Origin: a phage | Reading direction: 5' to 3' (one strand) | Length of the DNA stretch: 64,000 nt | Sequence record: PZ386975.1 | Shown: positions 12,384-12,890 of the stretch, one piece after another | Numbering within the stretch: position 1 is the first letter of the stretch | How the letters are laid out: the number at the start of each line of letters is the position of its first letter | Program-made: the position numbers and the translations under genes | Notes under the pieces: model-generated | What the model saw: the letters and a program-made list of their open reading frames with translations, nothing else | Told to the model about the DNA's origin: nothing | Database searches by the model: none

Positions 12384-12457
12384 GAAACTTCGTAGTATAT
12401 TCACAATAGACTAAGCCTTTCTTATCTGGTAAATTTTTCAGGTAAGGAGGGCTTTTT

Positions 12458-12635
12458 CATTTCAGAATTGTGCAGGTAGAGTTCTGTAGAGAAATCTATA
12501 GAGAAAATTTTGAACTCCAAAGAGAAAATTCATTTTCAAACTGTGCAGGTAATCTCCAAAGAGCTTTTCCATTTTCAAAACGTGCAGACCCCACTCAGGT
12601 CGGGCAAGAAAAATCATTTTAGAATTGTGCAGGTA
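12458..12635. repeat. four direct repeats of CATTTYCARAAYTGTGCAGGTA-like motif in a 500-bp non-coding leader
   Basis: copies at about 12458, 12531, 12570 and 12615. Confidence 0.6.
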
Positions 12636-12811
12636 GGTGGGTGTAGGTGGGGCTGTCGCCATTTCTCACAAGGCTACCACATATGAAAATAAAAGTCAAC
12701 AGAAAAATTTGTAGCGGATTGAAAAATAATTCTTGATTGTAGTTCTGTTTTGTGGTAGTCATGCGCGCCCGTTTCATTCCATTTTTGCAAAAATATTTTT
12801 AAAATTTTTTA

Positions 12812-12840
12812 TTGACTCTTTGAACGGGTTTTTATAGTAT
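12812..12840 (+). promoter_or_regulatory. sigma70-like promoter (TTGACT-17-TAGTAT) with AT-rich upstream region, heading the small-ORF array
   Basis: -35 at 12812-12817, 17-nt spacer, -10 at 12835-12840. Confidence 0.5.
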
Positions 12841-12890
12841 TTGCATCAGACGGGCAATCAAGCCCACTTCCTAAACTGGAGAATCTAAAA

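Follow-up and report, generated by a model that had tools for sequence, protein, structure and literature searches.

Small phage proteins such as P2 C and Cox, 186 Apl and lambda Xis build bent nucleoprotein complexes near promoters, on operator sites of 8 to 12 bp that lie in helical phase (10 to 11 bp) and overlap or abut those promoters. Centromere-like arrays, such as the 43-bp repeats of F sopC or those of R1 parC, are bound cooperatively by one protein. The iterons of lambda ori, P1 oriR, F ori2, R6K and pSC101 occur at one locus per replicon as 3 to 7 asymmetric sites of approximately 19 to 28 bp in one orientation. Here we describe an array of four direct repeats in a 64,000-nucleotide stretch of phage DNA (sequence record PZ386975.1; the whole stretch is referred to as the window). 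The array lies in an intergenic gap at positions 12384-12890 and is probably a protein-binding cis element. Judged by its sequence, the window is a Felixounavirus, that is, a Felix-O1-like myovirus (Ounavirinae) of the Escherichia/Salmonella type; a 2-kb query around the gap matched 227 phage records at 90 to 95% identity, nearly all of them Felixounavirus.

As in the P2, 186 and lambda operators, several sites share one orientation in the array, but its units are 28 bp long, lie 37 to 75 bp apart and stand at least 176 bp from the -35 hexamer. The tandem, same-orientation layout and the approximately 40-bp period recall F sopC and R1 parC; the array differs in having three or four copies only, with a 73-bp gap after the first, and no ParA or ParB genes were seen. 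Partition, moreover, would have no obvious role in a virulent phage. With the lambda and plasmid iterons the array shares a single locus with few asymmetric, uniformly oriented sites, two sub-sites about one helical turn apart, and a promoter and A+T-rich DNA nearby. It is unlike them in its spacing (37 to 75 bp versus approximately 22 bp), its G/C-rich flank, the lack of DnaA and IHF boxes and of an initiator gene, a replisome that is T7-like and the absence of a skew switch. No mention of the motif or the array was found in the searchable literature and, as far as that literature shows, the array is apparently undescribed; the PhageMaP study of the relative Bas63 yields no usable data on this region.

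Anatomy and conservation of the array

The core CATTTY-N6-GTGCAG was found in four copies on the + strand, at 12458-12479, 12531-12552, 12570-12591 and 12615-12636, with copy starts 73, 39 and 45 bp apart and a shared core of 21 nt. The pattern CATTTYMRAAHYGTGCAG had 4 matches, compared to 0.01 expected in shuffled sequence, and the looser CATTT-N7-GTGCA detected those same four sites only in the 64 kb (0.23 expected). The original prediction of four direct repeats between a macro-domain gene and a promoter was therefore borne out. Its motif is also real, although the consensus as written (a literal 22 nt) was one base too long, giving a single match, with three mismatches and in a shifted register, and copy 3 does not carry the GGTA ending.

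A consensus for the full unit was obtained from 36 distinct arrays, containing 66 distinct units, gathered from relatives. The unit is approximately 28 bp long and reads G-n-(TTTT or AAAA)-T-CATTTY-N6-GTGCA-G-R-T-A. The tract at positions -5 to -2 is all-T in 43 units, all-A in 22 and mixed in 1; G is found at -7 in 95% of the units, T at -1 in 96%, and G after GTGCA in 89%, followed by R-T-A. In the window, the + strand units are copy 1 (12451-12478, GCTTTTT-CATTTCAGAATTGTGCA-GGTA), copy 2 (12524-12551, GAAAATT-CATTTTCAAACTGTGCA-GGTA), copy 3 (12563-12590, GCTTTTC-CATTTTCAAAACGTGCA-GACC) and copy 4 (12608-12635, GAAAAAT-CATTTTAGAATTGTGCA-GGTA). Copy 3 deviates at its 3' end, which is GTGCAGACC and not GTGCAGGTA. 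Copy 1 begins in the T-run of the upstream terminator, and this T-run doubles as the T-tract of the copy, while a purine-rich stretch (ACTCCAAAGAG, GGTCGGGCAAG) precedes copies 2 to 4. A degenerate fifth half-copy, similar to the repeat unit, is located at approximately 12721-12750.

Within each unit the half-sites CATTT(T/C) and GTGCA flank six variable bases, and their centers are approximately 11 to 12 bp apart, which corresponds to one helical turn. The repeats behave like DNA-level recognition sites, since the presence of either A4 or T4 beside the core suits recognition of DNA shape and is hard to accommodate in an RNA or a peptide. The 3' half-site GTGCAGGTA was also seen twice inside the macro gene (11698-11706 and 11977-11985), each time encoding G-A-G-I. 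This match is not shared by the macro gene of the Erwinia phage and is probably a coincidence of codon usage.

The array is present at three to four copies in four genera of the Ounavirinae, namely Felixounavirus, Mooglevirus, Suspvirus and Kolesnikvirus (the Erwinia phages). The gap could be aligned over its full length in about 240 records. In Mooglevirus and Suspvirus the identity was 71 to 73%, with the alignment beginning exactly at copy 1. For the Erwinia phages blastn finds 60 bp only, and the layout was recognized by reading the sequence: the macro gene and a terminator are followed by four copies of TTTTT/AAAAA-CATTTT-N6-GTGCATAG at 37, 37 and 39 bp and by a C-rich tract, and an A+T block with TTGACT-17-TATATT lies approximately 200 bp beyond that tract. 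The order common to the four genera is thus macro gene, terminator, array, C-rich tract and, 130 to 200 bp further on, promoter. Copy spacings vary, being 73, 39 and 45 bp in the window, 75, 41 and 45 bp in the Moogle type and 37, 37 and 39 bp in the Erwinia phages. Phages Si3 and phiWec172 carry three copies at 75 and 45 bp, having kept copy 3 and not copy 2. In this lineage the macro protein is only 41% identical to that of the window, the terminator is different and the upstream half of the gap could not be aligned; copy 1 retains the motif despite the divergent macro allele. A mosaic junction was noted inside the array of this lineage, between copy 1 and the equivalent of copy 3.

Column identity in the array was 0.95 to 1.00 among 22 Felixounavirus sequences and 0.89 to 0.99 among 29 sequences from three genera, a set that does not include the Erwinia phages. 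Third codon positions of the macro gene gave 0.915 (Felixounavirus) and 0.832 (three genera). The array is constrained more strongly than synonymous sites and to a degree similar to first and second codon positions, and is therefore under purifying selection.

The array is the only place in the genome where the motif occurs. It was found nowhere else in the 64-kb window or in positions 52-86 kb of Felix O1, the part that the window lacks, so that the two together cover approximately the whole genome, and in a complete Erwinia-phage genome it was found at the array locus only. A pattern scan of IMG/VR returned Ounavirinae only, plus one coding repeat in a giant-virus metagenome-assembled genome (MAG). 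A few Felix-like contigs were recovered from metagenomes, the rest of the matches being unrelated tandem repeats. No match was found in 5,426 complete Escherichia coli genomes and plasmids, and a scan of one genome each of 185,579 species gave six matches, which were not inspected, all in non-enterobacterial MAGs. Two anomalies were encountered in the databases. IMG/VR contig 3300045988_004180 is phage sequence as far as the equivalent of 12604, halfway through the array, where GC-rich DNA of bacterial appearance takes over; it is probably a chimeric assembly. GU169904.1, labeled 'Staphylococcus phage SA1', and records labeled as Campylobacter are assigned to unrelated hosts but contain this Felix-O1-like region at 89% identity, and are probably contaminated or mislabeled.

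The intergenic region and the small early ORFs

The 507-bp gap separates the Macro-domain gene (11598-12383, + strand, 261 aa) from a 68-aa open reading frame (ORF; 12891-13097). The macro protein matches Pfam Macro at E=1e-7, is the homologue of Felix O1 ORF13 and is annotated as phosphatase/macro in relatives. The order inside the gap is terminator, array, replaceable 55-bp segment, conserved block and promoter-like site, and the best explanation for the whole is a composite intergenic control region. Careful annotations of relatives leave it empty save for the terminator. The intrinsic terminator of the macro gene (12413-12462, + strand) is a 17-pair hairpin (12413-12454) followed by the T-run, and is t13 of Felix O1, with a free energy of -21.8 kcal/mol (Whichard 2010, PMC3185647). 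Its equivalent is annotated as a terminator in phage Barry.

The segment after copy 4 (12637-12692) exists as two unrelated alleles of approximately 55 bp. The window has allele A, which is G-rich on the + strand and 52% A+T, while Felix O1 and the Moogle- and Suspviruses have the C-rich allele B, CCCCTCTCCCCCTCTTACTCCCCCTCTCCCC, whose complement is a canonical G-quadruplex motif. In neither orientation were the two alleles similar (p=0.45 and 1.0), so that A is not simply B inverted. Within the gap, two GenBank records and several contigs of relatives break off. Four or five independent assemblies stop in the C-rich tract of allele B; Nextera adapter sequence terminates one of these, and at the tract the KhF1 record contains Ns and its ends overlap. 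Breaks that fall in this tract and not in the repeats, accompanied by Ns or adapter, fit a sequencing problem.

The conserved block that follows (AAAAGTCAAnAGAAAAATTTGTAGCGGATTGAAAAATAATTCTTGATTGTAG..., 12693-12757) contains the degenerate fifth half-copy and has a column identity of 0.95 to 1.00 in Felixounavirus and 0.88 to 0.97 across three genera. Further downstream, an UP-element-like A+T-rich block of 37 bp (12775-12811, + strand, 86% A+T) abuts the -35 hexamer and is, by its low duplex stability, among the top 0.14% of 40-bp windows. The sigma-70-type promoter-like site TTGACT-17-TAGTAT (12812-12840, + strand) was expected from the original prediction, together with the AT-rich DNA upstream of it, and both were confirmed. 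The site matches the consensus at 9 of 12 positions, no better than several other promoter-like sites of the early module. Its TTGAC and T-A-n-T-A-T pattern is conserved across the four genera, and conservation was also seen for the A+T block. The rrnB P1 promoter and early promoters of T5 and SPO1 are strong sigma-70 promoters with an UP element. The site in the gap resembles them in having AAAAATATTTTTAAAATTTTTTA directly upstream of the -35 hexamer and, with its hexamers 17 bp apart and the A+T-rich block preceding them, is predicted to be a sigma-70 promoter with an UP element. This promoter occupies the 3' end of the gap, with the repeats 176 to 355 bp upstream of the -35 hexamer; a transcript starting at 12812-12840 would not include them, and the description of the gap as a leader was a misnomer. 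The distance between array and promoter differs between genera (176 versus 205 bp); the order is conserved, but the distance and the intervening sequence are not.

A short 5' region with GGAG at 12878-12881 leads to the first small early ORF (12891-13097, within 12841-13097 on the + strand), a 68-aa homologue of Felix O1 ORF15 that belongs to PHROG 5293 (function unknown). Most of the small ORFs downstream are preceded by their own cassette of promoter-like site, hairpin and Shine-Dalgarno sequence. In the window these cassettes were seen at 13096-18650 and consist of a TTTACA/TTGACA-type site, a GGGCTTA...TAAGCCCC hairpin that either separates the hexamers or follows them, and CTAAACTGGAGAWTCTAAAATG. 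The 57-bp and 39-bp repeats described for Felix O1 (Whichard 2010) belong to this small-ORF cassette. The array motif was absent from the other early-module promoter-like cassettes as well as from the rest of the genome. Five only of the early-module small ORFs are conserved in the Erwinia phage. Elsewhere in the window, 24 tRNA genes are clustered at 30037-35292 on the + strand, as expected in Felix-O1-like phages.

Available expression data come from reverse transcription PCR (RT-PCR) in Felix O1, which was not strand-specific. In that study ORF13, ORF16 and ORF20-22 were early, peaking at 5 min, while an amplicon across the array (the old 'ORF14', 8042-8254) was positive and peaked at 25 min (PMC3185647). 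This late peak hints at something time-dependent at the locus.

Possible roles of the array

We infer protein binding, the kind of binder and a role in transcription from the features described above. The array would serve as a docking platform for a sequence-specific DNA-binding protein, most likely encoded by the phage and common to all Ounavirinae. Such a protein would contact successive major grooves at the two half-sites and recognize the A/T tract by the shape of its minor groove, and three or four occupied units could build a higher-order complex. The complex may then affect transcription only locally, across the junction between t13 and the first promoter, by timing the shut-off or activation of the promoter or by blocking read-through, and downstream ORFs with their own promoter-like cassettes would be outside its action. 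A local role at the junction is the most economical, given that t13 and the first promoter of the early module always have the array between them and that the T-run of t13 contains the start of copy 1. We nevertheless put this role forward tentatively, as a possibility clearly more doubtful than protein binding itself.

The original prediction went further in proposing protein-binding sites that control the array of small ORFs. Selection, presence in four genera, a single orientation, paired half-sites and the A4/T4 alternation agree with DNA-level sites. Control of the whole small-ORF array is not supported, as the motif occurs nowhere else, only a single promoter is adjacent, the intervening 55 bp are replaceable and most of the downstream ORFs have their own cassettes. 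At most the first promoter or the t13 junction could be controlled.

Several observations weigh against a bound array acting at this junction. No binder was found, and neither the flanking ORFs nor the five early proteins conserved in the Erwinia phage have a recognizable DNA-binding domain. A single helix-turn-helix (HTH) regulator is annotated, Felix O1 ORF85, and an Erwinia phage with the array lacks it. Sigma-70 promoters are not usually controlled directly from sites as distant as the 176 to 355 bp that separate the array from the -35 hexamer, the DNA between array and promoter is partly replaceable and differs in the Erwinia phages, and spacings of 37 to 75 bp do not maintain a constant helical phase. 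The genes on both sides are early in Felix O1, so there is no obvious temporal boundary to police.

Candidate binders were considered individually. ORF85 is an Xre-type protein (Pfam HTH_3) found in all enterobacterial members and undetectable in Erwinia phage Ea_Tu10; it was rejected because that genome has the array. The C-terminal extension of the macro protein was also rejected, since more distant two-domain homologues are followed by gaps of 79 to 140 bp without an array. The five conserved early proteins are encoded by the ORFs at 14035, 14639, 15352, 16507 and 18029. None could be matched by sequence to Pfam or the Protein Data Bank (PDB), the PHROGs to which they belong are of unknown function, and three of the proteins are basic. 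These three are the first candidates for the binder. The consensuses for IHF, Fis, CRP, OmpR, the marbox and Lrp, compared by eye, gave no consistent fit in the repeats, and the single Chi sequence in the window is far from the array. The possibility that each repeat is a promoter was rejected, as no sigma-70, sigma-54 or T4 MotA-type arrangement was seen on either strand (partly by eye).

The location of the array relative to the genome ends bears on several other roles. The record of vB_EcoM_D4 has a 581-bp exact terminal repeat that maps to window positions 19414-20026, and direct terminal repeats were found for this phage using PhageTerm (PMC11737134). In UAB_Phi87 a 608-bp repeat was delimited by Bal31 digestion and run-off sequencing (PMC4837284), and it falls on that same stretch of the window; the SpeI end fragments predicted from this location, approximately 4431 and 2751 bp, are close to the reported 4322 and 2819 bp (PMC4837284). 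Between the array and the inner edge of the terminal repeat lie 6.8 kb, and the end of the genome, which is approximately 88 kb long, is about 7.4 to 7.6 kb (approximately 8.5%) away. UAB_Phi87, at 6.4 kb, and the Erwinia phage, at roughly 7.6 kb, show similar distances. A terminal block of small early ORFs thus has the array at its inner border. Two other non-coding regions were noted. The least stable DNA of the window (20034-20550) lies to the right of the terminal repeat and includes a cluster of repeats with a 12-bp period (20374-20438); this stretch is a candidate packaging or replication signal. A non-coding gap of approximately 550 bp (62739-63288) between minus-strand genes of the replication-gene cluster contains three units of approximately 150 bp, with hairpin-like 40-mers at 62922, 63079 and 63222 and ACC-rich repeats at 62969-63204. 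It adjoins very A+T-rich DNA at 62720-62850, and copy number varies among relatives (about 290 to 600 bp).

A replication origin is the main rival to the local junction role and ranks after it; we regard it as unlikely. The repeats would be iterons for an initiator or an assembly site for a T7-like replisome, with transcriptional activation supplied by the promoter and unwinding by the A+T block, much as in the primary origin of T7. The presence of three or four asymmetric direct repeats at a single locus in the genome agrees with this, as do a promoter and an 86% A+T block within 200 bp of the array and replisome genes of T7 type (a family A polymerase, a gp4-like primase-helicase and a gp6-like exonuclease). 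The T7 origin is near one genome end, beside promoters, and the array is approximately 8% from a genome end. However, the DnaA box TTWTNCACA has 7 matches in the window and none in 12384-12890 (by eye, the repeat units fit it at 8 of 9 positions in Erwinia phages and at 6 of 9 in enterobacterial phages). The 55 bp adjacent to the array are G/C-rich at 52% A+T, the sole A+T block is 37 bp long and 140 bp away, and on a scale of 80 to 120 bp the region is only in the top 3 to 11% for low stability, the least stable DNA of the window being elsewhere (20.0-20.5 kb and 62.72-62.85 kb). To the left and right of 12.5 kb alike, GC skew has values of +0.06 to +0.19 with no switch, which is a weak test in phages, and transcription runs in the same direction on both sides. 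There is also no initiator-like gene: the neighbors have no Rep-like or other DNA-binding Pfam domain, and the Felix O1 annotation contains only the T7-like replisome genes. The 37- to 75-bp spacing is wide for iterons. Direct-repeat arrays are also typical of small-terminase sites, and several relatives' assemblies end in the gap, as might be seen if the array were a packaging or terminus element (a pac site, a terminase-binding array or the edge of a terminal repeat). No small terminase has been identified in Felix O1 (PMC3185647). We rejected the gap as a genome end or pac site, and consider this class of explanation very improbable, because the terminal repeat of approximately 600 bp is at 19414-20026, away from the array, and the assembly breaks are confined to the C-rich tract of allele B and spare the repeats. 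A checkpoint for DNA entry has somewhat more in its favor, yet it too is improbable. According to this proposal, a protein bound to the array would halt or anchor the incoming genome once the terminal host-takeover module of approximately 7.5 kb is inside, as a counterpart of the T5 injection stop signal built from wholly different sequence elements in a contractile-tailed phage. In T5 the signal is a repeat region, non-coding and conserved, that delimits the first-step-transfer DNA on its inner side, 7.9% from the end (bioRxiv 10.1101/866236). The array is likewise a non-coding set of repeats, single-copy, oriented and better conserved than neighboring genes, and it stands at the inner boundary of the terminal small-ORF early module, approximately 8.5% from the end. 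The T5 region differs in its size (approximately 1.2 kb), its position within a 10-kb terminal repeat, and its hallmarks of inverted repeats, palindromes and eight paired DnaA boxes, whereas neither paired DnaA boxes nor large inverted repeats or palindromes were found in the array. Two-step entry has been verified experimentally in T5 and BF23 only (bioRxiv 10.1101/866236), and Felix O1, which has a contractile tail, is not known to inject its DNA in steps. In addition, the promoters of the module point towards the end, so that transcription could not pull the DNA in.

Two further explanations place the function in a product of the locus. An RNA-level element, either a structured non-coding RNA or an antisense sponge in which CAUUUU pairs with the AAAAUG starts of early mRNAs, could account for the positive RT-PCR amplicon spanning the array, with its 25-min peak unlike that of its neighbors (PMC3185647), but the assay's lack of strand specificity limits what this says. 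Copy 4 does contain 11 nt, CATTTTAGAAT (12615-12625), that are exactly antisense to ATTCTAAAATG at the starts of the ORFs at 13188, 15710 and 18639 (13177-13190, 15699-15712 and 18628-18641), a match equaled in 2 of 500 shuffles and in none of 198 control windows. It is nevertheless probably a coincidence and the sponge was rejected, since the match is found in this phage only and falls to a background of 8 to 9 nt in Mordin and the Erwinia phage. A non-coding RNA was rejected because Rfam gave no usable match (the sole one, SpF51, scored 23 bits compared to a gathering score of 50 bits and lies on the terminator) and there was no covariation on either strand, the alignment folds of the two strands (-13.8 and -6.2 kcal/mol) being weak, each with a single compensatory pair and a positive covariation term. 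No promoter-like site is present inside the array, and the swapping of A4 and T4 beside the core is incompatible with a conserved RNA motif. An RNA function therefore appears to us a slim chance. Slimmer still is the prospect that the repeats are part of a small coding gene (the old Felix O1 ORF14, or a 66-aa minus-strand ORF at 12462-12662) or are neutral leftovers of duplication. ORFs of 50 to 66 aa do overlap the array and hypothetical proteins are annotated here in some records, but spacings of 73, 41 and 37 bp disrupt any common frame between copies and genera, and the gap of the Erwinia phage has no ORF of at least 50 aa. Felix O1 ORF14 (8042-8254) crosses the replaceable segment and has been removed from RefSeq. 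A coding function was rejected on the basis of the frame-breaking spacings and the lack of any ORF conserved to the Erwinia phage, and neutral leftovers are ruled out by conservation above that of synonymous sites.

Significance for Felix O1 and its relatives

Phages of the Felix O1 type have a classic role in phage typing and are in wide use for biocontrol and therapy, and temporal regulation in Felix O1 is not understood (Whichard 2010, PMC3185647). For phage engineering, insertions in the seemingly empty 500-bp gap could hit an essential cis site. The array is small enough to be deleted, relocated or used as bait, and genetic tools exist for the close relative Bas63. As a single-copy, non-coding element that is better conserved than nearby genes in every Ounavirinae genus examined, it provides a handle on the timing of transcription, the start of replication or the entry of DNA in these phages.

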